NCBI GenBank assembly: GCA_963977055.1
Contig: CAXBMX010000019.1
Span: forward strand, 28,504-92,503
Reading direction: 5' to 3'
DNA length: 64,000 nucleotides
Origin: an uncultured Verrucomicrobiales bacterium
Lineage (GTDB): Bacteria; Verrucomicrobiota; Verrucomicrobiia; Verrucomicrobiales; DEV007
The notes under the pieces were generated by a model, which was not told where the DNA came from, searched no databases, and saw only the letters and a program-made list of their open reading frames with translations. This document shows, piece by piece, positions 1 through 46,178 of this stretch. The position numbers and the translations under genes are program-made. Position 1 is the first letter of the stretch. Every line of letters begins with the position of its first letter.

Positions 1-178
1 AGCAGACGCCCATCGGATCAAGATTGAAGGGCTACCAGGGCCAGCCCACTGCCTGTATTTCGAAACCGAGGTCAGAAACCCCGGCCTCAAAATGGCAACG
101 GACTTAAGGGACTTTATCGGGAATGAGACGGATGTGTTTTGCCTCGCGCGAGGCCTTCTTGGCCCTGTTCAAATCTAA
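1..178 (+). CDS. 3' end of a CDS entering from the left edge (unknown; C-terminal GLLGPVQI resembles ends of some glycoside hydrolases)
   Basis: Frame starting at nt 2 is open to TAA at 176-178: ADAHRIKIEGLPGPAHCLYFETEVRNPGLKMATDLRDFIGNETDVFCLARGLLGPVQI*. Converges on the sulfatase. Confidence 0.4.
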   Translation, partial: ADAHRIKIEGLPGPAHCLYFETEVRNPGLKMATDLRDFIGNETDVFCLARGLLGPVQI

Positions 179-224
179 GCAAGTCACTTGGGTCCCCGCC
201 TATTTCCGCGCCATTCTCCCCCGA

Positions 225-1766
225 TCACTTCTTTGGGGTCTTCTTGGAAGGCTTTGCCTTCCTGGGCGCTTTCACTGGAGGCACCAACCCATCATCAGGC
301 TGATTCCACAATCGCCACGGATCATCGAGGCGGCGCATCTCCGCGAGCAGCAACTCCTCCATCTCGACAAGCTTGTCCGCATACTTGGGATCGCCGGCAA
401 GATTGATCTGATTCTTTTTTGGTTTAATGCCAGTGAGCTCGATCACAGCCGGATCATGATGCTGCTCAAGGTACTCGTTAGGATTCTTGTCCAGATTGAA
501 GAGCTGAGTTTCCTGAACTTCTCCGTCAAGCACGTCATACTTGATTAACTTCCAGTCTCCTTTTTTCACGCAGCGCATTCCCGGTTTGGTCCCACCGTTG
601 TAAACGCCATAGAGCACGTCGCGACTGACGTCCTTTTCCCCCATCAAGACCGGCTTCGCGCTGACGCCTTCACTCGTCGCAGGAACCTCAACCCCCGTGA
701 GATCGCAGAGTGTGGAAAGCACATCGAGCAGGTAGATATTTCCCTCCGCTCGTGAGCCGGCCTCAATGCCAGGGCCTTTAACGATGAAAGGCACCTGCCA
801 GGTGTGCTCGTAGAGGTTCTGTTTTCCCTGAAGCCCATGCCGACCAATAGACATGCCGTGGTCGGCCGTGTAGACGATGTAAGTATTGTCGAGCTCACCC
901 ATTGCTTCGAGTTTCGCCAGCACTTTGCCAATCTGAATATCGATATTTTCATTGCAGGCAAACTCGCGACCCAGCTCGTTGCGAATCGTAGCAGGATCAC
1001 GTTTCTCCCACACCCCTTTCACACTGACCTCATCGCGAAGCCCCGGGTGCCCATGATGAAATGGGTGGGCCGGGAGCCAATTCTCAGGCAGGTCAGGCTG
1101 CTTCTCATCAGTAGCAGGTAAGTTCTCTTTGTCGGTATGATTAACGGCACCATACTTGGCCAGCAATTCTGGAGTGCCGTCTCGGGTATCATGTGGGTGC
1201 GAAAATCCATAATAAATCAGGAAGGGGTCCTCGTCTTTCGACGCCTCGCGTTCACCCAGGTAATCAAGAACGCGCTCACCATGCCAGACGCTGCCCGTTT
1301 CGTCAGTCCCTCCCCGCTTGGTAGCGTCATGCACCACGGAAAACTGCTCATTGGCACCCGCGTAGCTGTTGCCGTTTTTGCAGGTTCTCATCGTGTCGTA
1401 TCCGGCACGGTTAAACACCGCGGCAATAACATTATCAATCACCTCCGGTGGGCATGTCTCGCTCGCTTTGGGCGCATTGGGCAAGTGCCAGACCGTACGA
1501 CCGGACATAATCATGTGGCGTGAAGGCGTGCAAACCGCACCACTGAAAGAACCCATGTGATGGGCCGCGTCCAGGGTCATCCCCTCGGCGGCAAGCCGAT
1601 CAATATTGGGGGTATCCTGCTTCGATGCCGGATTGTAGACTTTCAGATCGAGCGGTGACTGATCGTCAACCAGGATGAAGAGGACGTTGGGTCTTTTGTC
1701 AGCGCCGACCGACAAAACCATCGTCAGAAGAAGCGCCGCGGCGAGCGCGGTGGAGAGTAGTTTCAT
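225..1766 (-). CDS. Secreted formylglycine-dependent sulfatase (S1 family)
   Basis: Signal peptide MKLLSTALAAALLL (ATG 1766; ORF track starts 1793), RPNVLFILVDD, signature CTPSRHMIMSGR (CxPxR), YTADHG, KQNLYE, Lys/Pro-rich tail. Confidence 0.93.
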   Translation of the reverse strand: MKLLSTALAAALLLTMVLSVGADKRPNVLFILVDDQSPLDLKVYNPASKQDTPNIDRLAAEGMTLDAAHHMGSFSGAVCTPSRHMIMSGRTVWHLPNAPKASETCPPEVIDNVIAAVFNRAGYDTMRTCKNGNSYAGANEQFSVVHDATKRGGTDETGSVWHGERVLDYLGEREASKDEDPFLIYYGFSHPHDTRDGTPELLAKYGAVNHTDKENLPATDEKQPDLPENWLPAHPFHHGHPGLRDEVSVKGVWEKRDPATIRNELGREFACNENIDIQIGKVLAKLEAMGELDNTYIVYTADHGMSIGRHGLQGKQNLYEHTWQVPFIVKGPGIEAGSRAEGNIYLLDVLSTLCDLTGVEVPATSEGVSAKPVLMGEKDVSRDVLYGVYNGGTKPGMRCVKKGDWKLIKYDVLDGEVQETQLFNLDKNPNEYLEQHHDPAVIELTGIKPKKNQINLAGDPKYADKLVEMEELLLAEMRRLDDPWRLWNQPDDGLVPPVKAPRKAKPSKKTPKK

Positions 1767-1960
1767 GTTTGAGGGTAATTTCAAGAGGGACACCTAACGC
1801 CGTTGCAAGAAATTCCGCAACGGCACACCTGCGTAGGTGAGATTTATTGACCATGTGTCATTGCAGCTTAACAGGCGGTCCACTTTTTCTTTTCCTTAAT
1901 CCTTTGGCTCTTCCAAAAACACAGAAGAAGCCCCGTTTCTCCAACAGCCATACATCTTAC

Positions 1961-3150
1961 TGACTTGATCCCGGAAGTGGGACACATCAAAAATGAAGTA
2001 CTGCCGCAATTATGGTTCAGTAAGGTGCTTGATCGATAGTTGTGCTGCGAAATAGAAAGGAGGCCGTTGCTAAATTTCGCAGGCGGCCGAAAACTCTGAA
2101 GGTGTCTGATATCCTAGCGAGCGGCGTGGCCACTCTTCGCTAGATTTGCATCGCCAAGAGCCCCTAATAACCGAGCCTTTCGAAACGGTCCAAATATCTC
2201 ATAGCTCAGCAGTTTGTCACGCCGCCTATCATGATAAGCTTTCAATGTAGGCATTCTCCCACGGTGATCCGAGCTTGATATACAGGATTTCAATATCGAG
2301 TTCTTTCAGCCAGCCTTGAACCACATAGGCAATGAATTGATTTGCTATCCCTCACCCTTTGGGCTGCACTACAGGCGGTCTATGTCCGCTTCGCTCCCAT
2401 TCTGAATGTTGTCACTGCGAATATGTTTCGGGGCGCCACAACGCGCAAAGGCCGCCCGATGATCGTGATCACATCTACTGCCCGGATCGACCAGCCCGCG
2501 TGGGCGCCCAAGCCCTCCCGAGTATGTTCGTCGATCAAAGTGAGTTCCATTCGCTGTTTGGTCAATGACGAAGTCTCCACTCCAGATGTTCTTCCGCTTC
2601 TCCGCCTGGCATCGCCAAGCGGCTGAAGGCCCCACACGGTAGGGACTTCGCTACTTTCCCCCTACCTTGAACCTCGCTTCGCGTTGATGACAAGTCCTTC
2701 TTTTCCTGATAGTTGCGGTTGGCGCTCCGCGCGATACCTATACCAAGGGTGCCTCTCGCTGAGTCGAATAATCCCTTTGCACATCGTGACCGATTTCTCA
2801 CTAGTCTGGCTCTGCACGGATCGATCCGCGATCAGTCGCTTCAGACTGCCATTTTTGTCTGCGAGGCTCCCGACATCCATGCCGCCATACTTTCGCGTCC
2901 ATTTGTAAAACTGGTAGCGTCGCAGCTCGAGCGAAGTGGAAATAGCCGGCCTTCAGGCAACTCGAAGGGCGAACGCTGTGAGGCAAATGTTGTGCTTGAA
3001 CACTCCGCTTTCACGGCGCTCTCTCCATCGGCCTCCCGCAGGATCCCGATGTTCTGTTCTTCGCTAAACCTACTTCTCTTCATTCGTTCTGCTCTTTTTC
3101 TTGAGGCAAAATTTTACTTTACGCACGTCTCACTTTTTGGAAGCAGGTCA
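1961..3150 (-). mobile_element. Degenerate IS3-family insertion sequence (IS407-group-like), about 1190 bp
   Basis: Imperfect terminal inverted repeats: TGACTTGATCCCGGAAGTGGGAC at 1961 and, on the minus strand from 3150, TGACCTGCTTCCAAAAAGTGAGAC. OrfA start MKRSRFSEEQNIGILREADG (ATG 3083). OrfB fragments in different frames: NIWSGDFVIDQTANG, LTLIDEHTRE, WLKELDIEILYIKLGSPWENAYIES. Multiple frameshifts and stops; no target duplication seen. Confidence 0.88.
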
Positions 3151-3246
3151 GGTGAGATTGACTTTACTAAATCGAATCCGTATTCTGCATTCGTGGTCGC
3201 GCCCTCAGTATCGAGGCGAGTAACCTTGAACGTTGGGCAAAAGAAA

Positions 3247-4302
3247 ATGAAACTTTGGAAGCTTGAAGCGATTCGTGGTTTAGCCGCGATGTATGTTGCC
3301 ATAGGGCACACGTTTGGTAGTGCAACACTCGTATTACGATTCGGGCAAGAAGCTGTTATCGTCTTCTTCCTGCTGTCAGGATTCGTTATTGAATATTCAC
3401 ATCACCATAGCCACGATAAATCATTTAAAGGATATTTCATAAAAAGAGTTACTCGAATTTACTCGGTATTCGTTGCGATGCTCGTTCTTTGCACCGTGCT
3501 GATTCAACCTGACCTAATGTCACTCGATTTCTGGAGGATCCTAGGGGGAAACCTCTTGATGTTGCAGGATTTTGAAGATGGGAAACCAAACGTAATAGTC
3601 CCGACTTTATTTGCAACTGCCTTATGGTCGCTTCATTACGAATGGTGGTTCTACATGTTATTTTATCCCATTTCAACCTATGTCGAAAAAAGAAGACAGG
3701 CATTGCTCGTCTCTTGTGTGGCGATCGTTTCAGCATTAATATATGTGAGGTTCCCAGAGGCAGTTCCTCGACTCACAATGTATTTTCTCATATGGTGGGT
3801 TGGCGTTGAATTAGCAAAATCCTACATTACCAACGGAGCAGTTAAAATTAGAGATCTAAGAGTTCCGGCAATATCCACGCTGACAGTGCTGCTAATACTC
3901 TCCCTGAACATTCAGCTATACCGACAGTCAGGAGAAACCCTCAAGTTTGGAATCCATCCAGTTCTGGAAGCAAGACATTTCTTGGCTGCAATTCTAACTC
4001 TTGTTGTTGCCCTACTTTGGCAGAGAATGAATTGGATTGGATTTTCCCTATTGAAAATTGGAGTCCTGATCGCACCAATATCCTACTCACTCTACATCAG
4101 TCACCAGCCACTTTTTGTTAATGCAAAATATCTTAATTTTGTAGACAACAAGAGCATCGAAAATATTCTTTATTTCCTAACATTGTTATCATTTTGCTGG
4201 GCTACTGAATTGAAATTATATCCAGCTATCAGAAATAAAATCAAGAAAGCCCAATCGGGTAGGCGGAAGAATTTGACTCCCACCGCCCACACAGATCCGT
4301 AG
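3247..4302 (+). CDS. Acyltransferase family 3 (OafA-like membrane-bound O-acyltransferase)
   Basis: Likely start ATG 3247: MKLWKLEAIRGLAAMYVAIGH, AVIVFFLLSGFVI, LWSLHYEWWFY, ISYSLYISHQP. The ORF-track extension back to 2713 runs through the antisense of the IS and is rejected. Confidence 0.88.
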   Translation: MKLWKLEAIRGLAAMYVAIGHTFGSATLVLRFGQEAVIVFFLLSGFVIEYSHHHSHDKSFKGYFIKRVTRIYSVFVAMLVLCTVLIQPDLMSLDFWRILGGNLLMLQDFEDGKPNVIVPTLFATALWSLHYEWWFYMLFYPISTYVEKRRQALLVSCVAIVSALIYVRFPEAVPRLTMYFLIWWVGVELAKSYITNGAVKIRDLRVPAISTLTVLLILSLNIQLYRQSGETLKFGIHPVLEARHFLAAILTLVVALLWQRMNWIGFSLLKIGVLIAPISYSLYISHQPLFVNAKYLNFVDNKSIENILYFLTLLSFCWATELKLYPAIRNKIKKAQSGRRKNLTPTAHTDP

Positions 4303-4957
4303 CATTGCGGTTCCAATTCACCACCGGCTACCTTTTTTTAAATAGGTCCGTTAAGGTAACGGATAAACATCTATTGTTTCTCAAGACTTGGCACTCCCTG
4401 TTGCTCCAACCACGCATCGGTTATCGCACCTTGCCTGCCAGTAACTGCGAGATCCAGTCCCAAAAAGTAGCGACTTCGGGAAAGGTCCGCTTACGAATGT
4501 CATTTTGGGCGGCTTCCAGAGTCTCGGCAGGATGAACCTTTGCGAAGAGCGACACTAATATCAGCAATGGAACGAGCTCGAAAGATTCGGAGGGAGTCGA
4601 ATCGAAGACGCTTCGCGCACCCTTCAAGTTGTGGCGAAATCCCAGGTAGAGATGGAGTTGCTTTTTCACACTCTAACTCAACCATTCGGCCGGGCTTTTC
4701 ACGCCCAAATTTGTAGATCAAGGCTCTTAAGTCCGTTCTATTCGACCCTGGCATAGAAAGATGAACTCCCACTATACGCCTAAATCCGACCGCTTGTTTT
4801 CTCTTCACCAACAAAGCAGAAATCAACTGCAGGACTCTGGATTTTACGCCTTCGAGAAGCTTAACGCAAATTCAGGGCTAATACCTGTACCCAAAGAGGC
4901 ACCGGCCCCAATCCGGCCGATGCCCTTCCTCGCTAGTGCGATATTCTTTTGCCCCTT

Positions 4958-5920
4958 CTAGAACTTGATCACCATGTCGAGCATGAACACATTTTCCAAA
5001 ATGCCGGAGCTGCTGCAGGTCAATGGAAACTCCCAGCCGAACCCGAAGTCATAAGGCTTTGTAGGGGGAGTCACCCGAAAACCAATTGCAGCCGAAACGA
5101 AATCGCGAATACGAGTGGCATTGGAGGCACTCCAATTCACAGGATCACCTGCCTCAAAGCCAACCAGACTAGGGAGCGCCCCTCCAAGCGGTGAACCAAC
5201 CCGCGCCCCGCGATCTCCCGGATCAAAATCACGTGAAACCAACTAAGCGCGGCAAGCGGCTTGATCCACTCATCCAACTCATAACTAACATGAGCACTGG
5301 TATAAAACATGGTGCTCTCAGCATCTCCATCCACCGGGAGTTTGAATCCCAAATGATTTAAAAACTGCCAGGGACTGAGAAGATTCAAAGTTGAAATCAA
5401 AGGAATGAAAACACCATTTGCCTCGCCCTGCCACACATCCGTATTTCCCATCGAGATCTCGAAGAGAAGTTGCACGCTCGAAGCCGACTTGTCATCGGGT
5501 CGATAAAGCCACGCATACTTGACCCCGGCCGCCACATTAGCCCAACCACCCGTATCGCTAAGAATATTGTCAGGATTAAAATCAATACAACCGTCTTTGG
5601 GCGCATTGATGGAAAGTCGTTCATTTAGAGCATATTCGAATTGCAAGGCATACAACTGATAGCCACCTGCCCGAGAATCGCATCAACCGCGCTCTGCATG
5701 CTGTTGGATATGAAAATGGGGTGAATTAGAGTCGGCGGAATCGCGAGATCAAACAGCGCCTGATTCGAAATGGGACGAATCGCATTTTCCCAGGGATCTA
5801 CTAGAGGAGCCGCAACAATCGCCTCAGGATCGCCGTAGGGCTCCCCGGCGGTGGAAATCGAAGTGCTGCTGCAATAGTTGGTAAAAAGCTATAGATCGTC
5901 AGTCGTTAGATGCGTTTCAT
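4958..5920 (-). pseudogene. Disrupted outer-membrane beta-barrel protein gene
   Basis: ATG 5920 reads MKRI* then a signal-peptide-like stretch. Fragments in changing frames: PWENAIRPISNQALFDLAIPPTLIHPIF, YALQFEYALNERLSINAPKDG...GWANVAAGVKYAWLY..., and a C-terminus DFGFGWEFPLT...ENVFMLDMVIKF* ending in Phe. Confidence 0.7.
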
Positions 5921-6338
5921 TGCCTGCACAGTAGAGTCAGCCTCGCTCCCCTGCTACGCAGATATTACGGCAGAATGAACAGAAAATGCACACTTGCTGC
6001 TGAGTCCAGCGTGATCGAATTAATTCCGAGACAATGACAATCTTCATTTTTCAGTATCTCCAATAAATTCAATCGAAAGCACAAGCCTCAATCAGCAAAA
6101 GGAAAATTAAATCAGAGAGGGAGCGATAACGTTCACCTTGGGTGTATCCACAGCAATTGCTGCTCTCTTCTCTCGATTCAATGAGGACCTAGATCTCTAA
6201 TTTTCAATATAATAGCAACCACAGAATCAGCTCCCTGAAGGAGCGCCTGACTTCTACTTGCCCATCAATGACTTGAACCGGCATATTATGCCGCCCATAC
6301 TATGCGTGGTCGAGTTTCCATCCAACCTCTTAGCTGTT

Positions 6339-7424
6339 GTGTCCACATCAAAAAACGTACCCAACTCCTCTTACATGCCGCAGCTCGATGGTCTGCGCGC
6401 ACTTGCCGTCGCAGCGGTTGCCTTTTCACATTGGCTGCCAAAGAACTATCATTCCGGCCTTCCTTGGGGGCCAGGAGGGGTTCAGCTTTTTTTCGTTCTC
6501 AGTGGATTTCTAATAACTGGGATTTTGCTACGATGCCGGGAGCATGAAAATCCGTGGCATTCGGCTAGAGCCTTTTATGCGAGAAGGTTTCTAAGAATTT
6601 TTCCACTATTCTATGCGGTATTGCTCGTTGGATTTTTCTTGAACATCCATCCTATTCGAGAGTCGATACTTTGGCATATCTCCTATTTTTCGAACTTTTA
6701 CTTCGTCGCCATTGGCGGATGGAACGGGCCAATCTCGCATTTTTGGTCGCTCGCGGTGGAGGAACAGTTCTACCTTTTTTGGCCAGCGGTGATCTTACTA
6801 ATCCCACGTCATTGGTTAAAGCCTTCCCTTGTAGGACTCATCGCAATAGGTCTGGTCTCTCGCTTCTGCTTGCCCATTCTTTTCCCCAACGCATCTCCTC
6901 TTGAAGCTCTTCCTAATTCGAACTTTGATGCCTTGGGCCTCGGCGCCCTATTGGCTTACACCACGGGCGGCATCATTTCTCGCCCGATCGTTCCATGGCT
7001 ATTTGTTGGAGGTCCCGCCTACTTCGGCTTTTTGGGACTCCGACTGCTTGATTTCGAAATTCCATTCCAATCAGAATTGGAACATACCGCGATGCTCCTG
7101 TTTTTCGCATGGGTCGTGTCTAAAGCATCAACGGGCTTTCACGGAGTTACCGGCGCAATCTTGCAGCTCCCTCCACTGCTCTATCTTGGCAAAGTTAGCT
7201 ATGGTCTGTATATATTTCACAATTTTGCAAGCCTCCCGGTTCAACTCCTTGCGAAGACGCTAGATATGCCTTCGATTGAGCTAGGGCCTACTAGAGTAGC
7301 CATGATGACTATTTTTACTATTTTAGCAGCAAGCCTTTCCTGGCATATGTTCGAATACCCTCTGAACAAGCTGAAGCGGCACTTCCCCTACAAGAAACCA
7401 GGCGAAACAGCCCCTCAAATCTGA
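6339..7424 (+). CDS. Acyltransferase family 3 (second OafA-like O-acyltransferase)
   Basis: MPQLDGLRALAV, GVQLFFVLSGFLIT, FYARRFLRIFP, HFWSLAVEEQFY, KVSYGLYIFH. Start uncertain (GTG 6339 or ATG 6375; ORF from 6258). Confidence 0.9.
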   Translation: MSTSKNVPNSSYMPQLDGLRALAVAAVAFSHWLPKNYHSGLPWGPGGVQLFFVLSGFLITGILLRCREHENPWHSARAFYARRFLRIFPLFYAVLLVGFFLNIHPIRESILWHISYFSNFYFVAIGGWNGPISHFWSLAVEEQFYLFWPAVILLIPRHWLKPSLVGLIAIGLVSRFCLPILFPNASPLEALPNSNFDALGLGALLAYTTGGIISRPIVPWLFVGGPAYFGFLGLRLLDFEIPFQSELEHTAMLLFFAWVVSKASTGFHGVTGAILQLPPLLYLGKVSYGLYIFHNFASLPVQLLAKTLDMPSIELGPTRVAMMTIFTILAASLSWHMFEYPLNKLKRHFPYKKPGETAPQI

Positions 7425-7656: not shown

Positions 7657-8583
7657 ATGCCCTCTCTCGAAGAACGCCTTTCTCTTTCCACCTGCTGGTG
7701 CTCCCACCGACACACGGATGGTTACCACATGCTTACGGAAATTCGGGAACTGGGATTTCACCAAACTGAACTCAGCCACGGCATTCGCATGTCATTGGTA
7801 CCGGGAATTATCAAGGCCATCGATGAAGAAATCATCGAGGTATCCTCGGTTCACAATTTCTGCCCGCTTCCTGCCTCGGTCCAACATGCAGCGCCCAATC
7901 TGTTTCAGCCCTCAGTCAAAGGCGGCACTGAATTGGTCATGTGGATGCAATATTCGCAGCAGACCATCGACTTCGCTGTTCGAGTCGGAGCGAAAAAGAT
8001 CGTCATGCACTCTGGCAGCATGAGCTTCCGCTTTGGTTCACCGGGACCTGTTCTCGACGTCCTCGACCCCACTGAAGAAGAGCTCTCCTCGGATGCTCGG
8101 AAGAAGGCTCTGGCCAAGCTCAGGAAAAGGGCCTCAAAGAACACTAAGACCGTCATCGCCAACTATCAGACGCTTGGTCCGTCAGCCGCCGCCCAGGGAA
8201 TTCAACTCGGGGCTGAAAATCGCGAAGGATTGCTCGAGCTTCCTCTCGACGAAGAATTCCCCGAATTCCTTAAACAATTCGATGTGGCTGGCCCGGTCCA
8301 ATATTGGCACGACACCGGCCATGCCCAAATCAAACATAGGCAGGGCCTGCTCGATCACCGCACCCACCTCGAAGCCGTCGCGGATCGCCTCATCGGATTT
8401 CACCTCCATGATGTCAGTGAAACAGGCAAAGACCATCAAGTCCCTGGCACCGGAACGATTGATTTCAAAATGGTTGGAGAGTTTATAAGGCCCGAGCACA
8501 CCCTCATCGCCGAATTGAGCCCAAAGCTCACCAGGGATCAGGTGATTCAGTCACGAGCGTATCTTCTGGAGAATCTAGCCTAA
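7657..8583 (+). CDS. Sugar-phosphate isomerase/epimerase-like TIM-barrel protein (AP endonuclease 2 / xylose isomerase-like fold)
   Basis: Metal-ligand-type motifs GAENRE, WHDTGHA, GFHLHD, HQVPGTGTIDF, IAELSP. Confidence 0.8.
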   Translation: MPSLEERLSLSTCWCSHRHTDGYHMLTEIRELGFHQTELSHGIRMSLVPGIIKAIDEEIIEVSSVHNFCPLPASVQHAAPNLFQPSVKGGTELVMWMQYSQQTIDFAVRVGAKKIVMHSGSMSFRFGSPGPVLDVLDPTEEELSSDARKKALAKLRKRASKNTKTVIANYQTLGPSAAAQGIQLGAENREGLLELPLDEEFPEFLKQFDVAGPVQYWHDTGHAQIKHRQGLLDHRTHLEAVADRLIGFHLHDVSETGKDHQVPGTGTIDFKMVGEFIRPEHTLIAELSPKLTRDQVIQSRAYLLENLA

Positions 8584-8625
8584 GAGAGCCCCTGAAAGAC
8601 TGTTGAAATATCCTGGAATGAAAAA

Positions 8626-8770
8626 GGAAGTCGCCTTGCCATTTGGCGCGGCTGGCGGGCGCTCCACGCGACGAAGAAGCAGGGTTCCCTCTACCCTGAG
8701 GAGCAACGAAGTCAGACGGTAAAAGGGCCATCACCCGAAGGGTCGACTCCATAACACTTCCGGCGAAGCC
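8626..8770 (-). ncRNA. Candidate structured small RNA, family unidentified
   Basis: Nested helices found by eye: 8626-31/8756-61, 8661-65/8700-04, 8680-85/8693-98, 8708-14/8744-50, 8715-19/8728-32. The imperfect pairs are G-U only on the minus strand. A sigma70-like promoter lies upstream and a U5 tract (8621-25) downstream on the same strand. Confidence 0.45.
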
Positions 8771-8774
8771 GCCA

Positions 8775-8803
8775 ATTGAAAGCCCCGAGAGATATTGCGT
8801 CAA
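8775..8803 (-). promoter_or_regulatory. Sigma70-like promoter for the candidate sRNA
   Basis: Minus strand TTGACG (8803-8798), 17-nt spacer, TTCAAT (8780-8775). Confidence 0.5.
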
Positions 8804-9138
8804 AAAAATGTATAAACCGCCTCCTAAGGGGCCATTCAAGAATGGCACGGTATTAAGGTAGTTGTTCGAGGGTGGGGCGTTCGTCGGGAAATTTGGCATC
8901 CTCCGCTACAAGACGCTCACGTAGCGGAACTTGCAAAAAGTTCCGATGATTGGGATTTGCGGGCCAAATTTTCTTAAACCCGGGCCATTCAATTAATAGC
9001 GAGTAGCCTCGGTGTCCTATTTTTGAGTCAACACGCCTCCTGAATTCAAAGAGGAATTTTGTTGCTTAAGACCTCCGCGAATGAAAGCCTACCGCCGAAG
9101 TATATCGTCAAGCTTGAAACATCACATGCCGCACTCTC

Positions 9139-9187
9139 CAGTGAAGGTCTTCGCCCTGAAAGCGAAACGACCGAGGGCGGTAGCGTG
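9139..9187 (+). promoter_or_regulatory. JUMPStart-like leader: hairpin followed by an ops element (RfaH/NusG-paralog recruitment site)
   Basis: CAGTG (9139-43), hairpin GGTC-TTCGC-[CCTGAAA]-GCGAA-AC-GACC (9146-72), then GGCGGTAGCGTG (9176-87), 15 nt before the ATG of the first gene of the glycan operon. Confidence 0.75.
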
Positions 9188-9202
9188 ACCTCAACCTCAA
9201 AA

Positions 9203-9841
9203 ATGCCGCAGACTTGCCCAAGATGGCTGAAACGCCTCACTTTCTTGTTATTACTCCTAGGGCTTGGCACCCTCGTTTTGGTGGCCTTTCATCGCCCAAT
9301 CTTAACTTCGCTGGCGAACGCCTGGATTGTTGACGACAGCCCCATTGATCAGGTGGATGCGCTCATCGTGCCGGGAGGAGGATTTGAAACCCGCCCCTTT
9401 GGCGCAGCCGAACTCTACCTCAAAGGGGTCTCCGATCGGATCATCACCTTTCAAACTGAAGTATCCCCCAGGGGAAAATTGGGACTGGCGAGGCCCCATC
9501 ACCAGGAAAATATCCAGATCCTGACAAAAAAGGGCGTGCCCGCCACTGCGATCACCGTGATAGGGGACCACGTCGCCAGCACTCAGGACGAAGTCAACGC
9601 AACGGCAGATTGGTGTCAAAAAAACGATATCCAGTCCATTGCTGTTTTTACTGAATACCTTGCCAGCAGACGCGCCGCCTGGGCGTTCCGAAAGCAACTT
9701 TCCGCTCAGGGCGTCACCGTGCATCTGGCCGCTCTAGAGCACCATCCATTTACGCTAAAGGAATGGTGGCTCGACGAAGATGGCGTGATCACTTTCCAAA
9801 ACGAAATCCTCAAGTATTTTTACTACCGGTTGCGTTACTGA
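9203..9841 (+). CDS. YdcF/DUF218 (ElyC/SanA-like) protein with N-terminal membrane anchor
   Basis: TM segment [50 protein letters not shown]. Start placed at ATG 9203, downstream of ops (ORF track starts 9059). Confidence 0.75.
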
Positions 9842-22797: not shown

Positions 22798-22840
22798 CTA
22801 GAAAATTCTAGCCCCCTGCACTCCTTTGCGACTCTTTAGT

Positions 22841-23235
22841 CATTTTCCCCCGACCAACGCTGCGGATATGCAGCGTGTTAGACCGGTCTGCATTTCAATG
22901 ACTCAATGTGGGATTCATCATCTCGGCTGCCACTAGTTAAAAGGAATTTGGAATTCCATTTATTCTGAATTACCAAGACGCACGGGTAAACAATTATTAC
23001 AAAGAACACTCTGAAATTTTTCCGATCATTTGAATCGTGAGTTCCGCGCGAGTTCCCTAGCATTTCTTCAGTTTTGAAAGCTTATCCCGAACAGCAAGAT
23101 AAATGGCACCCATGGCTCAGACTCAAATTCGGTCTGCGGCCTCCGATCCGTCAAAGCCAAGGGCAATCGCCAATCAATCACTTGACCGGAACACAACCCC
23201 GGCAAGACTTTACTTATGATGTGTCCCGCTTCCGG
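22841..23235 (+). pseudogene. Deleted, frameshifted relic homologous to the glycosyltransferase at 24278-25621
   Basis: HFPPTNAADMQRVR (22841-82) equals the N-terminus of that GT. FGIPFILNYQDARVNNYYKEH (about 22947-23009) matches YGVPFILDYQDPWVNDYYKEH. AYPEQQDKWHPWL (23080-118) matches AYPEQLDKRYPWL. Confidence 0.85.
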
Positions 23236-23295
23236 GATCGGGTCACTATTTCATGAATTGGGGCAGCATAGATTCAAGCCAGAGAGAAATCGCCG

Positions 23296-38785: not shown

Positions 38786-38803
38786 GCAAAGTTGCTAAAT
38801 CAA

Positions 38804-39736
38804 ATGAGCAAAGAATCAACAATGACGGCCGGTGAAGGCAGTCTCGCCAGGAACTTCATTCCGTTTTGGGTATTTCTGGGACTTTGGTTTGGACAACTGT
38901 TTCTTTCTCTGATTCCCAGCTGGGCAGACGGCACCTACTACGACTACGGCTTTTTGGTGCCACCAATCGCTGTGATGATGTTCCTCGGGAGATGGAATGA
39001 AATCGTTCCAAAATCTGATTATCAAAGAATCCTCTCCTCGATCGCAAATACTTTACGATCACCGGTGATCTGGTTTTTCGGAATCGCAGCCCTAGTGGCC
39101 GTTACTTTACTAAGACTGATTGAATCCGTTGATTCCGGATGGAGAGTCCCGCTTTATTTGCATTGGGTGATCGTATGGGCATTCGTAGGGCTGCTTTTTT
39201 CGCGGTTCCTCACTCCTCGAGAAACGCTCCAATTCACACCAATTCTGGTACTGACGCTTCTGGGTATCCCTCTGCCATCATTCATCGAACACTCATTGAT
39301 CCAGGGGCTCACAGATCAGGTAATCGAAACTTCTGTCGCATTAAACAGGTTTGGTGGATATCCCCTGGATATTTCGGGACAAACAATATTCGCCAATGGA
39401 ATCCCGCTCCGTGTCAGCGACGGTTGTAGCGGAATTCGGTCCTTTCAGAGCAGTATATTCGCAGGATTTGTCATAGGAGAACTCCTTCGACTGAAATGGT
39501 TCATAAGAATTTTTCTGATTATCGCCGGAGGGACCGTCGCTTTTCTAGGAAATTGCGCCCGCGTCGTATTTCTCGTTAAGCACGTATTTGACCACGGGGA
39601 TGTTGACCTTCAGAAGCTGCACGATATCAGCGGATATGTTTCGCTTACCCTGACCTTGGTTGTGATACTTGGAATTGGTTTCATTCTGGAGCGTTACAAG
39701 TTCGCTGCCAGCAAGAATCACAGTCGCACTCAGTAG
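38804..39736 (+). CDS. xrt: Exosortase (EpsH/archaeosortase family)
   Basis: Multi-TM; YYDYGFLVPP; putative catalytic Cys (VSDGCSGIRS), Arg (GNCARV) and His (LHDISG). Confidence 0.9.
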   Translation: MSKESTMTAGEGSLARNFIPFWVFLGLWFGQLFLSLIPSWADGTYYDYGFLVPPIAVMMFLGRWNEIVPKSDYQRILSSIANTLRSPVIWFFGIAALVAVTLLRLIESVDSGWRVPLYLHWVIVWAFVGLLFSRFLTPRETLQFTPILVLTLLGIPLPSFIEHSLIQGLTDQVIETSVALNRFGGYPLDISGQTIFANGIPLRVSDGCSGIRSFQSSIFAGFVIGELLRLKWFIRIFLIIAGGTVAFLGNCARVVFLVKHVFDHGDVDLQKLHDISGYVSLTLTLVVILGIGFILERYKFAASKNHSRTQ

Positions 39737-39773
39737 ATTCAAGTAGCTATCACAGTCAAAACGAGTAGCCGCC

Positions 39774-41159
39774 TCACTCTTTGATCCGAACTTTTCTAGA
39801 TCCCCGTGGCATTCTAACCGCCCAGAAAATCGCCAAGTAGACTAAAACCTGTAGCTGGATGGCTGGGATCTGCAAAGGGAAGTCAATGAGAGCGTGAGTC
39901 AAAACCAGAACTAATGCTATCAGACCACAGCTGATTGAACTCTCAATCGTTCTTCTTTTTGCCAGCCGGCGAACAAAGATTGACGCTCGGAGGATTCCTC
40001 CTCCGATAAGCACGAGCCAAGCAGTAGCTCCCACAAATCCCCACTCGATAGCAGCCTGAAGATAGTCTTGATGAGCATGAGAGTAAACGCCACCAATTGA
40101 TCCGTTATCCTCACGATAGAACGGGAAAATTAAGTGAAACGTCCCTGGACCTTTGCCGTAAATACCCGAATCACCGAGTAGGTTAATACAGTAACCATAT
40201 GCCGTAATCCTACCGCCTACATTTCCCCAGCGATCAATAAACCCATTCCAATTTTCGACAGATGTAGAAAGAGATGGAAGCAAAACAATACAAAATACAG
40301 TTAAGCAAAGGAACGCCGACACTGCTAATGTAGCTTTTGAATAGGTACCCGAAAAAAATTCATTCCGAAACCTGCATGCACATATCAATATTCCAGCCAG
40401 CCCCAGCACATGACCGGCTTTCGAAGTGTTAACGAAAACGGCCAAAACAGTGAAGAATAGAACAGTTAACCAGAAAGAACTCTCCAAACTTCCACGCTTC
40501 TTGGTTCGACAGTGCAACCATACCGTTAACGCCGCAGGCCAGGAAAGATTCAGAAATGCGGCGGCATTTGCGTGGTAGCGGAAAGCGGCAAAGAACTTCA
40601 CTATCGGTTTCTCGGAATGCACCCAGAGCATATTTTCTGCTCCTCCCGCTTTCTGCGCAATCCCAATCACCGTGATCACAAACCCAGAAAGCGCTATCGC
40701 TTTCAAAACAATGCTACGAATTCTTCTGTCCCTCGTTAAGTCGATCAAAACAACGAGACCCATAGAAAGTGCGGCATAGTGGATTATCGCCTGCTGAGTG
40801 GTCGCTTTGTCAATGGTTCCGGGCAACCATGAAACAGCTCCGACGATTTCATCGAACCCCCAAAAAGATTCAAAAAATATCGATTTGGGATTTAACCAGC
40901 AGACGACCCCGTATACCTGGAGAAAGATGATCGCGCCGAGGCAGACAGAATTTAATCTGGGCAGCCTTTTCTCTTTTAAGAGAAAAAGTATCCAGCCCAG
41001 AAATGACAATAATAGTAGTCCGTCAATAACTCCCACTGTGATGGGCGTTGTGCCGCCAAATCCTAAGGGAGCAAACAACAGCGCGACGACAATTGGGACT
41101 AGGGCTAGATTCCTCGCTGAATTGGAAGCTTGGCTAAAATCGTCCGTCATGAGCAGCAA
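39774..41159 (-). CDS. O-antigen ligase / oligosaccharyltransferase family protein (Wzy_C domain)
   Basis: FRYHANAAAFL, TSKAG, GRITAY, GKGPGTF, HAHQDYLQAAIEWG, HALIDFPLQIPA. Confidence 0.85.
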   Translation of the reverse strand: MLLMTDDFSQASNSARNLALVPIVVALLFAPLGFGGTTPITVGVIDGLLLLSFLGWILFLLKEKRLPRLNSVCLGAIIFLQVYGVVCWLNPKSIFFESFWGFDEIVGAVSWLPGTIDKATTQQAIIHYAALSMGLVVLIDLTRDRRIRSIVLKAIALSGFVITVIGIAQKAGGAENMLWVHSEKPIVKFFAAFRYHANAAAFLNLSWPAALTVWLHCRTKKRGSLESSFWLTVLFFTVLAVFVNTSKAGHVLGLAGILICACRFRNEFFSGTYSKATLAVSAFLCLTVFCIVLLPSLSTSVENWNGFIDRWGNVGGRITAYGYCINLLGDSGIYGKGPGTFHLIFPFYREDNGSIGGVYSHAHQDYLQAAIEWGFVGATAWLVLIGGGILRASIFVRRLAKRRTIESSISCGLIALVLVLTHALIDFPLQIPAIQLQVLVYLAIFWAVRMPRGSRKVRIKE

Positions 41160-41232
41160 TAGATAGCCTGAAAGACAGGCTCTAACGACCGATAGAGATG
41201 CTTTACATCAAAAAAGAGGCGTGCCAAACACA

Positions 41233-43296
41233 CTATTCTGAGGCGTTTCGCTCGACACCTTCTAGCTTACCCAAGTCGGAAGTGCCTTCTTCTTTCGGGG
41301 TCTCGTCATCATCACTAGGCTCAACACTTGAATAGTTCGAGTAACTACCCCCACCGCCGTAGTATGAATAGTAGTATCCGTATCCACCCTTGGTTCTCGC
41401 TATAGGTAAACCATTGGCAACCACTCCTACCGGATAGGATGCATTATCTTTTAAGGTTCTCACGGCACGCTTAATAGCCGTTCGAGGCGTCTTTCCAATC
41501 CGACAGACCAAGACAACCGATTGAGCTAATTTGGCAATCGGAAGAGTATCCGCCACAGGAATCAGAGGCGCTGAATCAATAATAATTCGATCGAAATATT
41601 CTGAGAGTTTGGCTAACAAACCGGGAAGATTTTTACCTGCCAGCAATTCCGAAGGATTCGCAGAGTAGCTACCAGCGGACATCACAAACATATTTTCTGA
41701 AAATTCCGTTCGCTTGATAACTTCCTTAAAACTTTTACCAAGTGACAGATAATCTGCCAAGCCCACCGATTTTTGGCTATAGCCAAATATCTCATGCTGA
41801 ACCGGCCTTCTTAAGTCCGCATCAATTAAGAGAGTTCGGTCGCCTTGCGTGGCAAAGGAGCTAGCCAAATTGGCAGCAACGAAACTTTTGCCTTCTCCAG
41901 GAACGGCACTTGTTACTAAAAATGTACACCGTTCACTCGAATCGCCCAAAAAGGTGAGGCCTGCTCGAAGAGTTCTCACTGCTTCCGTAGCCTGCGAATT
42001 TGGGTCAGCCTGTAACATCAACGCACTGCTTCGACCTAATTTCTTTGCCCCAGGCATCGCACCGATTACCGGAATTCCAGTCAATACCTCCAAATCAGCA
42101 ACAGTTCTGACAGTTGGGTCCAAGAAGCCCATTAGGAATATCAATCCGATACCGATTGCGCTGCCTGCCAAAACAAATTTGGTAATCAGCTTTTTCTTGA
42201 CGGGAGCAATCGGACTAGTGGGCAAATAGGGATTCTGCAACACCTCGAATTGCTTGGTGGCAAATCCAGCTGAAAGATTTCCTTCCTTCAGTTTCGTAGT
42301 CAAATTGTCATACATCTGTTGCTCGACTTCAATTTCACGTTCCAATACGCTCGCACGCGTCGATGCCAGCTGAATTTGGGCATTGATAAGATCCTCTCCC
42401 ACGAGTCCAACCAATACCTGCTGATTAACCTGCCAGAATTTGGCTTCGTCAGCAGATGATCTCAGCACTTGCTGCAACTCCTTTCCAAATCGCTCGTTTA
42501 ATATTCTACCAAGTTCTTTCGCTTCAACCAGAGCGGGCCAGCGAGGTAGGTATCGCTTCTCCATTTCACTAATAGACCGCTCGGAATTCCTGATCTCCTC
42601 GCTCAATTCGATACACCTGTTATAAAGACGATTCGCTTTTTCGAGGCCAAGTAATTTTTCTTTGATCACTGTCGAGTTTTCCAAAATATAGTCGAGGGCA
42701 TATTCAGATGAACCCGCGACCTTACTTTCGATTGCCCTTTCATATTCCGAGAGCAACGCAATCACAATATCCCTCGCAATCGTAGGGTCACTATGAGTAC
42801 CGTATATGTCGAGCAAAGTGGTATCCTCTCGCCAACTAACAGTAACCCAACTCCGCATCATCCCCCCTAAAACAGCCGGATTAATTTCCTTACTGGAAAC
42901 AGACATATCCTCTTCCCATGGCAGCTTAAAGAGCTTAGGAAGCACATCCTCGCGCTCGGAAAAAAGATGACTTCGAGCAATCTCCGCATAAATACTGGGC
43001 ATTTTCAGCTTCTCTGAAGCTGAAAGTAGTTCTCCAACTCCTGTCATACGAATCCGCTCTTCTTCATCAACGTCAGCGGCATCTTGCTTAACTCGTCGAA
43101 TCTCAATCGTGGCGGAGGAGCGAAATGTTTCCGGGGTATTGGTGAAGATGAAAAGCCCATAAAAGTACCCTCCCAGGGCACAGATAAGAAATATCCAAAA
43201 ACGACGAAGAAACCATCTTAGAAAGTCTTGCGGACCCCTCGTAGTTTGTGGAGCCGTGTTGCTTAGTTCCTCCTCTTGATAATCCGATTCGTTCAT
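41233..43296 (-). CDS. wzc: Polysaccharide co-polymerase / BY tyrosine kinase
   Basis: Two TMs flanking a coiled-coil region, Walker A SAVPGEGKS, LIDADLRRP, IIIDSAP, Tyr cluster GGYGYYYSYYGGGGSYSNY. Confidence 0.92.
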   Translation of the reverse strand: MNESDYQEEELSNTAPQTTRGPQDFLRWFLRRFWIFLICALGGYFYGLFIFTNTPETFRSSATIEIRRVKQDAADVDEEERIRMTGVGELLSASEKLKMPSIYAEIARSHLFSEREDVLPKLFKLPWEEDMSVSSKEINPAVLGGMMRSWVTVSWREDTTLLDIYGTHSDPTIARDIVIALLSEYERAIESKVAGSSEYALDYILENSTVIKEKLLGLEKANRLYNRCIELSEEIRNSERSISEMEKRYLPRWPALVEAKELGRILNERFGKELQQVLRSSADEAKFWQVNQQVLVGLVGEDLINAQIQLASTRASVLEREIEVEQQMYDNLTTKLKEGNLSAGFATKQFEVLQNPYLPTSPIAPVKKKLITKFVLAGSAIGIGLIFLMGFLDPTVRTVADLEVLTGIPVIGAMPGAKKLGRSSALMLQADPNSQATEAVRTLRAGLTFLGDSSERCTFLVTSAVPGEGKSFVAANLASSFATQGDRTLLIDADLRRPVQHEIFGYSQKSVGLADYLSLGKSFKEVIKRTEFSENMFVMSAGSYSANPSELLAGKNLPGLLAKLSEYFDRIIIDSAPLIPVADTLPIAKLAQSVVLVCRIGKTPRTAIKRAVRTLKDNASYPVGVVANGLPIARTKGGYGYYYSYYGGGGSYSNYSSVEPSDDDETPKEEGTSDLGKLEGVERNASE

Positions 43297-43409
43297 ATCA
43301 CAATATAATGCATCGTTGCGCACGCCGGCCAACTACTTCCGTCTAGCCCGGAACGATAATGGCCGCATCCAGCAAAGCCATCAAAACGATTCGCAATCCT
43401 CTCAAAACC

Positions 43410-44237
43410 TTAGAATATACTTTCCGGAACCGAGATCGTGTCATTGGGCTGAAGTATGAACGGCGCACTCTGATCCTTTTGCATCTTAGTGATATTCACC
43501 TCAAAGGTTTTCACCCCTTCGGCCGTTCGTCGCCTCACCACTACTTTTGACGGTCTTGCAATATTGGTAAGCCCTCCGGCGACTGCAATGGCCGTGATCA
43601 GATCGAATGGATTATCGGGATCCATTTCAATGGCACCCGGTTTAGTGACCTGACCAATCACAGTAACCGTTGTTATCCTCTCCTTTACCTCTTCAAGCGC
43701 GTGAACGATCACTGTGTCACCTTCTCGAAGTTGATAGTTCCTATCAGCATCAATCGACAAAATCGCGGTGCGGAGGTCGGCCCCTTCGCGACGTTTAAGC
43801 TCAATCCGATTCCTATTTCCCCGCTCGGCTAGACCTCCCGCCGAAGCGACGGCGGTAAATAGGTCGATTGAGGTTCCAGCGTCAAAATTGACTCGCCCGG
43901 GTGAAGTTACCTGGCCGATAACAGTGACTGATTGGGGCGGAAGCTCTGACTCCTTTGAAAGCGCCACGACGACTTGCGCATCGCGAATGAAGTCAGCCTC
44001 CAATCGAACTTCAATCTCAGAGGCCAGGTCTTTCGCTGACTTCCCTACCGCTGCCAAACTGCCAAGCAGCGGCAATACCACGCCACCACTTGGTCCTACC
44101 GTAAAAGGTCCTGAGAGCGACGCTTCATCAAAAACAGTAACACTGACAATGTCTCCTTCCTTCAGGAGAACATCTTCCGACCACGCGCATTGAACGGCTC
44201 CAATTGCGAAAACTGCAACCCAAATTGCGAATCTCAT
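43410..44237 (-). CDS. wza: Polysaccharide export protein (Poly_export plus two SLBB domains)
   Basis: LKEGDIVSVTVFDE, VTVIGQVTSPG, AGGL, LQPNDTISVPESIF. Confidence 0.88.
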   Translation of the reverse strand: MRFAIWVAVFAIGAVQCAWSEDVLLKEGDIVSVTVFDEASLSGPFTVGPSGGVVLPLLGSLAAVGKSAKDLASEIEVRLEADFIRDAQVVVALSKESELPPQSVTVIGQVTSPGRVNFDAGTSIDLFTAVASAGGLAERGNRNRIELKRREGADLRTAILSIDADRNYQLREGDTVIVHALEEVKERITTVTVIGQVTKPGAIEMDPDNPFDLITAIAVAGGLTNIARPSKVVVRRRTAEGVKTFEVNITKMQKDQSAPFILQPNDTISVPESIF

Positions 44238-44339
44238 ACTTTCTTCTCAGCCTCAACCTCCCACAAAATCGAACGCACCTTCACGACAGGACATTCACCC
44301 GTCGATGAAGAATACTTCTACCTCTAGGTGCCCTATGCC

Positions 44340-44792
44340 CTATGGGGTGAATGGTGACACTTCAGGTCCCCTCGAGCTCCCCGGGTTCACCAAACTCAGG
44401 TTTGGACTGGTTGTATGCCTGCCATTCGTTGCCTCCACCACCGGTGCATCAAAAACGATATCTTCACCATTTCGGATATCAATCAGCGCAGTCTGGACTT
44501 GCAATCCATTTGGATAGGTAAATCGGACGCGATACTTACCTGGAGGAATTGCCGTAAAATTATATTGGCCATTCGCATCAGCCACCATTGTTGCAATAAC
44601 AGTGCCGTTATTACTAAGCAATTCCACCGTCGTACCAGGGACAACAGGCTCGCCAGCATCAGCTTCACCATCGCCATCGGAGTCAACGAAGACGACACCA
44701 GAGACAGAGCCCGCTTGGGCAAATATCTCCTGAGAGCACCCAAAGACGAGCGCCACAACAATTACTGAGATCCAAATTTTATATAGTTTCAT
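44340..44792 (-). CDS. Small secreted protein with an SdrD B-like / Cna-type Ig domain
   Basis: Signal peptide, SVSGVVFVDSDGDGEADAGEP, TTVEL, ADANGQYNFTAIPPGKYRVRF, tail LVNPGSSRGPEVSPFTP. Confidence 0.8.
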   Translation of the reverse strand: MKLYKIWISVIVVALVFGCSQEIFAQAGSVSGVVFVDSDGDGEADAGEPVVPGTTVELLSNNGTVIATMVADANGQYNFTAIPPGKYRVRFTYPNGLQVQTALIDIRNGEDIVFDAPVVEATNGRHTTSPNLSLVNPGSSRGPEVSPFTP

Positions 44793-44829
44793 ATTCTATA
44801 AAGTTTCAATGTTTCGTGAAAAAATCTAA

Positions 44830-46095
44830 TTAATAAGTAACACCAAACCGAACCCCTGCAATTGACTGATCAAAAGAAGCAATAGCAAGATTCGAGTCGT
44901 TTTCATTGTAGTTATAAAATACGCTCATTACGCCGCCCACACTCTCGCAGAGGCGAACAGGATGAGAAAGAGAAACACCCAAGCGGAGGAAATCGTCCTC
45001 TCTTAGATTAGCGATAACCGTCCCCGCACCTGAAGAGAAGTAGTCGGCATTTTCATATCCAACATTTGCAGCCAACTGAAACTGCCCCGGGAGATCGTGA
45101 GAAATCGTCAAGATAAAAGCGTCCGAGGTATAGTCCTGGCTGACACCGCTAGAGGAAGGCCTAACCGTCCTCGCTGCGTAGAAATCAAGAGAAGTCTTAT
45201 CAGAAACCGCCCACGCAACTCCTACATCATAAACGAAATTTTCACTGTCGCCACCAGTCGAGGTAGCATTGGAACGGGACTCATATCCCATCGATCCGTA
45301 AGCAGTCGTCTTCGCTGAAGCCTGATAGCGCCAGCGGAATGAAGGAGCAATCGTATCTTGGTTCACGTTGCCAGTGAAGTCATCAGTCCCAACCCTAAGA
45401 CCCACACCCAAACTTGATTTTGGCGCAAATATCGGCTTATGGAAGAAAGCAAAGTCACCGTAGTAGCTATTCTGGTCATTCAGAAGAGTCCCTGAGTCAA
45501 AATCTCTCATGAAGTAGCCTCCCCCAAACTCAATCGAGCCTCGGTCTAAATCCCGTACTACCGACGCATCAATTCTGTAGTCATGACTTTGAGCATTCCT
45601 TGCCTCACGATCAATGCCCGAGAACTCGATCGAGTTTCCATTATTCCGGTAATAGTTGGTATCCAACCTGAAACGAGTCTTACCACCATTCAGCCCAAAA
45701 AAGCCTCCAACATAGTGCTCCAACGGATCACGGCCAGCGGCGGCAGCAGAATTTTCATACCAATAGGCGTTGCCGTCATAATTGAAGCCATACACCACCC
45801 CTCTAGCACCTTCATCACCGGAGGCGAACGCCACCCCATAATCAAAGACACCCATCCACGCCCCAGTGCCATTAGACAATTGGGTTGTGTTTGAATTGTA
45901 TACGGCGGATGCACCCCCGTAGAGACTTAACTTGTATGGCGACTCCTGCAGCAATCCAGCGCCAGGCGCCTCATAAGCTGACTTCCCAGAGTAGGATGAC
46001 TTGCCGGAATCGGCGTAATAATCACCCGAAATAAGGGTTCCCGGCGCGGTTATTGCGAAGCCGATTAAGGCCAATGCGTATCTCTTTATGTTCAT
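44830..46095 (-). CDS. Outer-membrane beta-barrel protein of the polysaccharide export locus
   Basis: Signal peptide, alternating Tyr/Gly/Asn-rich strands, C-terminal GVRFGVTY, position between wecA and wza. Confidence 0.75.
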   Translation of the reverse strand: MNIKRYALALIGFAITAPGTLISGDYYADSGKSSYSGKSAYEAPGAGLLQESPYKLSLYGGASAVYNSNTTQLSNGTGAWMGVFDYGVAFASGDEGARGVVYGFNYDGNAYWYENSAAAAGRDPLEHYVGGFFGLNGGKTRFRLDTNYYRNNGNSIEFSGIDREARNAQSHDYRIDASVVRDLDRGSIEFGGGYFMRDFDSGTLLNDQNSYYGDFAFFHKPIFAPKSSLGVGLRVGTDDFTGNVNQDTIAPSFRWRYQASAKTTAYGSMGYESRSNATSTGGDSENFVYDVGVAWAVSDKTSLDFYAARTVRPSSSGVSQDYTSDAFILTISHDLPGQFQLAANVGYENADYFSSGAGTVIANLREDDFLRLGVSLSHPVRLCESVGGVMSVFYNYNENDSNLAIASFDQSIAGVRFGVTY

Positions 46096-46178
46096 GCTTG
46101 TGTTTGAAAACTGTTAGAACCGATAATCTTGGAGGTTATTTGCTTCGACTTCAAGAGAAATTCTAAATAAAATCTAAT

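Follow-up and report, generated by a model that had tools for sequence, protein, structure and literature searches.

The 64,000-nucleotide stretch analyzed here, which we call the window, is part of contig CAXBMX010000019.1 from an uncultured Verrucomicrobiales bacterium and contains a long operon of glycan genes, in whose probable leader lies an element resembling the JUMPStart/ops signals of Escherichia coli. The genome is marine, and the window belongs to a Tara Oceans scaffold of 449 kb. The operon begins with the gene of a DUF218 (YcdF-like) membrane protein and encodes a UDP-glucuronate decarboxylase-like epimerase, UDP-glucose dehydrogenase, a Wzm/Wzt ABC exporter, methyltransferases, acetyltransferases, GT2 and GT4 glycosyltransferases, UDP-GlcNAc 2-epimerase, FkbM methyltransferases, a sulfotransferase and an AsnB-like amidotransferase. 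The co-directional run from 9203 to 35731, described in a previous reading of the letters alone (the original prediction), is real and made of glycan genes. The Verrucomicrobiales-like host proposed at the same time is supported by the Mfd protein of the window, whose named relatives, at up to about 80% identity, are metagenome-assembled genomes (MAGs) of Verrucomicrobiales. The 12-mer GGCGGTAGCGTG, identical to the E. coli ops 12-mer, was found on the + strand at 9176-9187, and the first ATG of the operon (9203-9205) follows 15 nt downstream. These features, as well as the hairpin and the CAGTG box in front of them, lie exactly where they had been predicted. The expectation of 0.008 originally given for the exact 12-mer is arithmetically correct, and the covariance model score described below is a stronger statistic. 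The ops consensus GGCGGTAGNNTG has two matches in the window, compared with 0.07 expected from shuffled sequences. The second one, GGCGGTAGGTTG at 49708-49719 on the - strand, is located within a 429-aa transporter-like coding sequence (CDS; 48861-50150, - strand), and we read it as a chance match because it lies in a CDS and has neither a hairpin nor a model match.

The element was found repeatedly in related genomes. A scan of a genome collection with the DUF218 alignment gave 54 loci, and six Verrucomicrobiales/Akkermansiaceae MAGs carry the motif in the form ...GAAACGACCAGTGGCGGTAGCGT...; five of these copies are located directly 5' of the DUF218 gene and the sixth, in locus L009, about 3.8 kb upstream of it. 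Each of the six follows a hairpin whose inner stem differs in sequence while the pairing is kept. Additionally, metagenomes were scanned for AWCGACCRRKGGCGGTAGCNT, which gave at least 119 stretches, and the large set of copies used below derives from this listing. Altogether, more than 90 related copies were found upstream of polysaccharide genes, which answers the originally suggested check of related genomes for the motif in front of glycan operons. Among the matches listed, 77 of 111 distinct copies satisfy a strict hairpin rule (an outer stem of 4 bp, a 2-nt bulge and at least three inner pairs). About 15-18 copies have no hairpin and lie in CDSs, a number close to our rough estimate of chance matches.

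A covariance model, named R1, was built from 13 metagenome copies, with the window excluded. R1 matches the window at the element with 44.8 bits (E 1.3e-10, 922 kb searched), this being the only match in the window at E<=1, and it also recovers the six MAG copies. The 93 R1 matches, corresponding to 80 distinct rows, were used for the analysis of covariation. The hairpin positions are paired in 97.1% of cells, compared with 77% in shuffles; changes on both sides of a pair occur in 151 cells against 47.7 expected, and compensatory changes were observed in seven of the ten pairs. The alignment was fitted to the model, which favours structure, yet the effect is large and the inner stem lies outside the search pattern; when the pairing was slid along the alignment as a control, it dropped to 13-57%. 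Moreover, U-G pairs are frequent (52 of the 80 copies at outer pair 4), which assigns the hairpin to the sense strand, with RNA as its most likely form. The loop and the inner stem have no conserved bases. When only the window sequence was used, folding of 9100-9215 was no better than that of shuffles (z -0.57), and a long-range pairing of 9127-9136 with 9173-9183 in the single-sequence fold was dropped, as it is not kept in relatives. The distance between the stem and the ops-like sequence is 3 nt in 15 of 15 copies retrieved without a DNA pattern, and in the loci retrieved through proteins only the ops core is invariant save for position 6. The CAGTG box was considered as a family feature and rejected: it is present in only 5 of 77 copies, all in the DUF218-linked Verrucomicrobiales subset, and its role is therefore uncertain. 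The element as such is thus genuine and conserved, and we regard it as a leader signal of glycan operons.

Downstream of 69 copies, the first open reading frames (ORFs) are for the most part genes of nucleotide-sugar and polysaccharide metabolism, among them those of epimerases/dehydratases, UDP-glucose dehydrogenases, UDP-galactopyranose mutase, Polysacc_synt_2, initiating transferases, ABC-2 exporters, DegT and DUF218. The median distance from the element to the start codon is about 50 nt. In the window, the stretch between the element and the first gene reads ACCTCAACCTCA. At several loci this interval contains tandem repeats of period 7-8 (3-7 copies) or CTGAAA-rich runs (L009:775-810, L071, L119 and L160; also L112, L131, L142, L146, L170 and L179), and the density of CTGAAA is about 4-fold higher downstream of the element than upstream.

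The original prediction had noted that the motif would be mere coding sequence if the DUF218 gene truly began at 9059. The frame is indeed open from the TTG at 9059, and the public gene call is a long form of 259 aa. The sequence AGAGGA, 3-6 nt 5' of two successive TTG codons (9050-9064), probably led this call to an over-long start. In the alignment with homologs, the 48-residue stretch encoded by 9059-9202 aligns to gaps in 23 of 23 proteins. The codon phase over the motif differs between related loci, an in-frame stop follows the motif in L012 and L134, and in L008 the frame opens just 7 nt before CGACC. The unshared 48 residues, the differences in phase and the unrelated families encoded downstream therefore indicate a non-coding leader, with ATG 9203 as the likely start. 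The GTG that closes the ops motif (9185-9187) is in the DUF218 frame, both in the window and in its closest relative (L151:1505; 58% identity). In L151 an ATG is missing from the interval between element and membrane helix, so that translation there might begin at the ops GTG.

Genes of NusG paralogs are linked to the element. Of the 62 copies whose upstream sequence spans 700 nt or more, 17 (about 27%) have such a gene on the same strand, ending 55-480 nt 5' of the element. The reverse analysis used eight loci fetched by paralog protein identity only, including Akkermansiaceae CP059069.1 and a Luteolibacter MAG. An R1 match was present in all eight, at a distance of 95-125 nt from the end of the paralog gene and directly in front of the first gene for glycan synthesis. 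The order in these cassettes is a MarR-like gene, the paralog, the element and the glycan genes. The MarR-like gene (150-172 aa) overlaps the start of the paralog gene by 4 nt in 8/8 cassettes (L179:9492-10004, L180:5492-6004, L182, L183 and L185-L188), which suggests that the two genes form a regulator unit ahead of the element. The paralog family comprises at least 4,874 clusters at E<=1e-10, and members of it are annotated automatically by JGI as 'antiterminator RfaH'. In the first homolog contexts examined (L002-L005), DUF218 lies inside clusters and the motif is absent; a 200-aa ORF at the contig edge there, considered as a NusG candidate, was rejected as a DedA-like membrane protein.

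All 17 linked paralogs match the RfaH family TIGR01955 (best E 3.9e-25), the first member narrowly above UpxY. For the paralog listed in detail, TIGR01955 was the best NCBIfam family, at 69 bits against a cut-off of 144.5; the same protein scored 56 bits with the LoaP model NF033641 (cut-off 125) and 65 with UpxY (cut-off 100), so that all three scores lie below their cut-offs. The best relatives of the paralogs in the Protein Data Bank (PDB) are E. coli RfaH structures (72.7 bits, versus 58.7 for NusG). The structure matches also include PDB 8f5g, 'NusG-RNA complex', which is presumably LoaP. Foldseek TM-scores of the paralog model were highest to active-state RfaH, and the model of paralog P0058 has an extra helix at 96-109. 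At the positions of E48, I93 and F130 of RfaH, the paralogs have E, V and I.

Other arrangements were observed at glycan loci. A second, UpxY-like type of NusG paralog is encoded beside DUF218 glycan loci in three MAGs (L024:8638-9132 on the - strand, L017:5315-5974 and L037:1-369 on the - strand), one labelled Verrucomicrobia and two with another or no taxon label; these three loci have neither the GGCGGTAG element nor an R1 match. In alphaproteobacterial MAGs (Stellaceae and others), a different hairpin, GGTGAA...TTCACC, is followed by YGAAY and GGCGGTAGCRTG at glycan loci (L036:5167-5199, L038:7366-7397, L035:146, L052:145, and, on the - strand, L054:3887 and L021:3820). RfaH-like genes are located near such sites (L036:796-1380, L038:4082-3279, L050 and L032), with TIGR01955 scores of 102-126 bits for L038 and L036.

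The element was compared with the JUMPStart/ops leader, which reportedly goes back to Hobbs and Reeves in 1994. In a permissive scan of 8500-9500 (about 1 kb), the Rfam JUMPstart family RF01707 matched the window at 9160-9187 with 21.0 bits (E 0.077), below the gathering threshold of 35, and the 13-mer GGGCGGUAGCGUG accounts for essentially all of this score. As a control, the rfb leader of E. coli K-12 scored 60 bits. In the opposite direction, R1 matches the E. coli rfb JUMPStart with 20.5 bits (E 2e-5). The rfb leader consists of CAGUGC, a 5-bp stem-loop and then GGGCGGUAGCGUG, and the Rfam consensus begins with CAGCGcA. The resemblance extends to several features: both stand at the head of long polysaccharide operons, the 13-mer GGGCGGTAGCGTG forms the 3' end of the Rfam consensus and of the rfb element, a stem-loop stands directly 5' of it, and the CAGTG box is shared by the window and a few relatives. 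Moreover, rfb CCAGGGGCGGTAGCGTG and the verrucomicrobial consensus CCAAGGGCGGTAGCGTG are identical at 16 of 17 positions (CCA[A/G]GGGCGGTAGCGTG), and the window matches the ops consensus GGCGGTAGnnTG exactly on the sense strand. In contrast to the 5-bp stem of E. coli, the verrucomicrobial hairpin has greater length and two tiers, and its 2-nt bulge and GGTYT/AWCGACC bases are conserved; the verrucomicrobial element also has three further bases between the stem and the GGGCGG run, and C or T at ops position 6. RF01707 has been described for gamma-Proteobacteria only (PMC2864571). Our literature searches on RfaH or NusG paralogs in Verrucomicrobia, and on the motif string, found nothing relevant.

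In E. coli, T at ops position 6 is critical and is the base read by RfaH. The core of the eight paralog-fetched loci is GGCGG, followed by C in six and T in two, and then AGCGT, and the consensus of the family in unbiased loci is GGCGGYAGCGTG. The 'perfect ops' of the original prediction therefore stands as an exact match in the window, whereas its T6 is only one allele of GGCGGYAGCGTG. The bases of the consensus pause, G2, T11 and G12, are conserved across the family. Tandem pairs of elements were also observed (L135:5632-5686 and 5845-5898; L063:1690-1744 and 1478-1530; L064:6530-6583 and 4359-4410; L087:5695 and 7409). In L135 and L063 the upstream copy differs by A or G at position 6 and by a compensatory change in the outer stem, which is GGCT/AGCC where other copies have GGTC/GACC.

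The coordinates of all these features and of the neighbouring genes are given in Table 1. The Rfam scan of the whole window at the gathering threshold found the tRNA alone. No sigma-70-like site was found on the + strand in a sigma-70 scan upstream of the element, and terminator-like sites within the operon were no more numerous than expected from shuffles. The genes of the operon are tightly packed except for a gap of 499 nt (22798-23295) without a listed ORF of at least 150 aa, which could be an internal promoter or a small gene. The region 38792-47705 contains a minus-strand cluster for polysaccharide assembly and export, with Wzy_C ligase-like, GNVR/P-loop chain-length regulator, Poly_export/SLBB, beta-barrel porin and GT4 initiating transferase genes; as the window has no second R1 element, none heads this cluster. 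Sulfatase genes and two acyltransferase-3 genes (1-7424) precede the glycan region, and after it come the tRNA gene, the type III polyketide synthase-like gene and mfd.

Table 1. Coordinates of the leader element, the glycan operon and other features of the window.
Feature	Position	Strand	Remarks
CAGTG box	9139-9143	+	Sequence; matches the E. coli JUMPStart 5' box (CAGTG/CAGCG)
Hairpin	9146-9172	+	27 nt; two stems, bulge and loop; covariation in relatives
Outer stem GGTC/GACC	9146-9149 with 9169-9172	+	
Inner stem TTCGC/GCGAA	9150-9154 with 9162-9166	+	
Hairpin loop CCTGAAA	9155-9161	+	
2-nt 3' bulge AC	9167-9168	+	
Spacer GAG	9173-9175	+	3 nt; family consensus RRK, mostly AAG
ops-identical 12-mer GGCGGTAGCGTG	9176-9187	+	
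Whole element according to R1	9140-9192	+	44.8 bits, E 1.3e-10
Upstream non-coding stretch	8584-9138	+	Expected promoter region
DUF218 (YcdF-like) membrane protein gene, first of the operon	9203-9841	+	Pfam DUF218; probable start ATG 9203
Co-directional glycan operon	9203-35731	+	About 26-30 kb; possibly extends to the exosortase gene ending at 39736
123-aa ORF	8528-8899	-	No family match
Exosortase EpsH gene	38792-39736	+	Converges with the minus-strand cluster
Type III polyketide synthase-like gene	55810-56850	+	
tRNA gene	56917-56998	-	
mfd	57479-60733	+	

We consider it likely that 9139-9187 is a verrucomicrobial variant of the JUMPStart/ops antitermination leader, at which RNA polymerase (RNAP) pauses and is converted by a specialised NusG paralog to a termination-resistant form that reads the operon of 26-30 kb to its end. 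Transcription would start within 8584-9138. To judge from the sequence, the 27-nt RNA hairpin would just have left the exit channel as the active site reaches the ops-like sequence, the stem ending 14 nt before T 9186. With its pause features G-10, Y-1 and G+1, GGCGGTAGCGTG would then, by analogy with E. coli ops, halt the polymerase at about 9186; the pause is predicted at T 9186, where G 9187 would be the next base to enter. The paused complex may then be bound by a NusG paralog from the element-linked family through the non-template DNA, the RNA hairpin, or both, and the modified complex would resist pausing and Rho-dependent termination. More speculatively, the KOW domain may help to recruit a ribosome to the start codon 15 nt away, which has no Shine-Dalgarno sequence. 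The action of a paralog on this particular operon, the site of the pause and the partner that gives specificity (non-template DNA or RNA hairpin) are inferred.

Known systems offer a frame for this proposal. In E. coli, RNAP is halted at ops and RfaH is loaded there, and pausing at ops-like sequences is seen with diverse RNAPs; the targeting of specialised NusG paralogs outside Enterobacteria has been described as unknown (PMC7593976). RfaH-like proteins have been reported in 23 of 117 phyla, with recruitment known for E. coli only. Like RfaH, the linked paralogs combine NGN and KOW domains and are associated with lipopolysaccharide (LPS)/polysaccharide operons; unlike RfaH, they are often encoded in cis, directly 5' of the element. 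LoaP (Firmicutes/Actinobacteria) and UpxY (Bacteroides) resemble them in that the paralog stands at the head of the activated cluster and in profile scores little below that of RfaH. LoaP-type NusG paralogs bind a leader RNA hairpin; a leader hairpin is present in the verrucomicrobial loci too, but the one paralog listed in detail scores below the cut-off of the LoaP model. To our knowledge, no ops-like DNA or pause motif has been described for LoaP or UpxY. Monomorphic beta-RfaH homologs that are encoded in cis by LPS operons are also known from a 2026 preprint (PMC13015549). They share with the verrucomicrobial paralogs a predicted beta C-terminal domain, the loss of key ops-binding residues and a gene that adjoins a long polysaccharide operon. 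In contrast, they are proposed to be recruited in cis without ops, whereas the verrucomicrobial gene precedes a strictly conserved ops-like site with a hairpin, and this site is also present at loci without a paralog gene, such as the window.

Several observations weigh against the proposed leader mechanism. The large metagenome set was retrieved by a DNA pattern that fixes the 3' half of the element. An adjacent paralog is found at only about one quarter of the copies, and tblastn found no NusG paralog in the 64-kb window, whether the queries were RfaH and NusG of E. coli or 28 ORFs of NusG paralogs taken from the fetched loci. Any factor must thus be encoded elsewhere and act in trans, in agreement with the original placing of the factor outside the window. 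The variation of position 6 between C and T (A or G in the second copies) makes an RfaH-type reading of T6 unlikely, and RfaH-style base reading as a whole is doubtful. The full list of ops contacts of RfaH, K10, H20, R23, Q24 and R73, is said to come from work on the RfaH:ops9 structure. In the main clade of the linked paralogs, K10 is replaced by Q, R23 by E, Q24 by L and R73 by Q, so that the comparison of ops-contacting residues, recommended as a check on RfaH-like control, leaves H20 only. K10 and R73 are among the contacts named in the literature (PMC7593976). The AlphaFold2 model of P0058 has a beta C-terminal domain (strands 116-169) and no alpha hairpin; it was built from a shallow alignment with a mean pLDDT of 74.9 and a pTM of 0.58, and such a prediction cannot exclude a switch. 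Additionally, beta-RfaH homologs were ops-independent in E. coli assays (PMC13015549). The RfaH-like control of the original prediction is partly upheld: the conserved polysaccharide leader, its likeness to JUMPStart and the linkage to paralogs in relatives speak for it, whereas the paralogs score below the RfaH cut-off, have lost all but one of the contacts and are predicted to have a beta domain.

A leader that works without a dedicated factor would account for part of these observations, since the hairpin and the consensus pause could slow RNAP for ribosome coupling or for the housekeeping NusA/NusG. About 70% of the copies, that of the window included, have no adjacent paralog, the paralogs lack the DNA-reading residues of RfaH and are predicted not to be autoinhibited, and the start codon without a Shine-Dalgarno sequence is only 15 nt downstream. 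We nevertheless regard this explanation as unlikely: the two-way linkage (17/62 and 8/8) greatly exceeds what chance would give for a gene with one or two copies per genome, and the restriction to polysaccharide loci is typical of the targets of specialised NusG paralogs. An element that acts purely at the level of RNA, as a stem-loop with a single-stranded tail for an RNA-binding protein or in mRNA stability or processing, seems improbable to us. Covariation and U-G pairs do indicate an RNA-type structure on the sense strand, and the binding of LoaP-type paralogs to a leader hairpin also speaks for it, but the loop and the inner stem lack conserved bases, the conserved tail is a known DNA/RNAP pause signal that cross-matches JUMPStart, and Rfam has no such RNA family. 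It is very improbable that the inverted repeat is a duplex-DNA operator for the MarR-like regulator encoded before the paralog. MarR proteins bind palindromes, and the MarR-like gene is a constant neighbour of the paralog in the cassettes; however, the inner stem varies freely with its pairing kept and uses G-U pairs, which do not make a palindrome in duplex DNA, the conserved bases show no symmetry, and the element lies 3' of the regulator genes, in the presumed transcribed leader. A chance match, or coding sequence of a longer DUF218 protein starting from TTG 9059/9062, can practically be dismissed despite the open frame, the AGAGGA before the TTGs, the public call and the second ops-consensus match within a CDS, because no homolog aligns with the 9059-9202 stretch, phases differ and in-frame stops occur, many unrelated gene families follow the element, and the R1 match has an E of 1e-10.

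Beyond the antitermination leader of this operon, we tentatively suggest, as a possibility somewhat short of even, that the hairpin together with ops is a loading site that spans phyla. A non-autoinhibited, beta-type paralog without a base-reading pocket would need a pause identical to ops, and would derive its specificity from the RNA hairpin or from another DNA-contact surface. It would serve its own cassette in cis and distant glycan operons, such as that of the window, in trans.

The element is also of use in annotation, where it shows at which point large glycan operons of Verrucomicrobiales truly begin; in the window it corrects the gene call from a start at 9062 to the likely one at 9203. 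Through this family, a candidate site is now defined precisely outside the phylum of E. coli; over 90 natural variants of it are available, a candidate cognate protein family is encoded beside it, and the very base read by RfaH in E. coli varies naturally between C and T. The family also calls into question, in a directly testable way, whether beta-type relatives of RfaH that are encoded in cis can do without ops.

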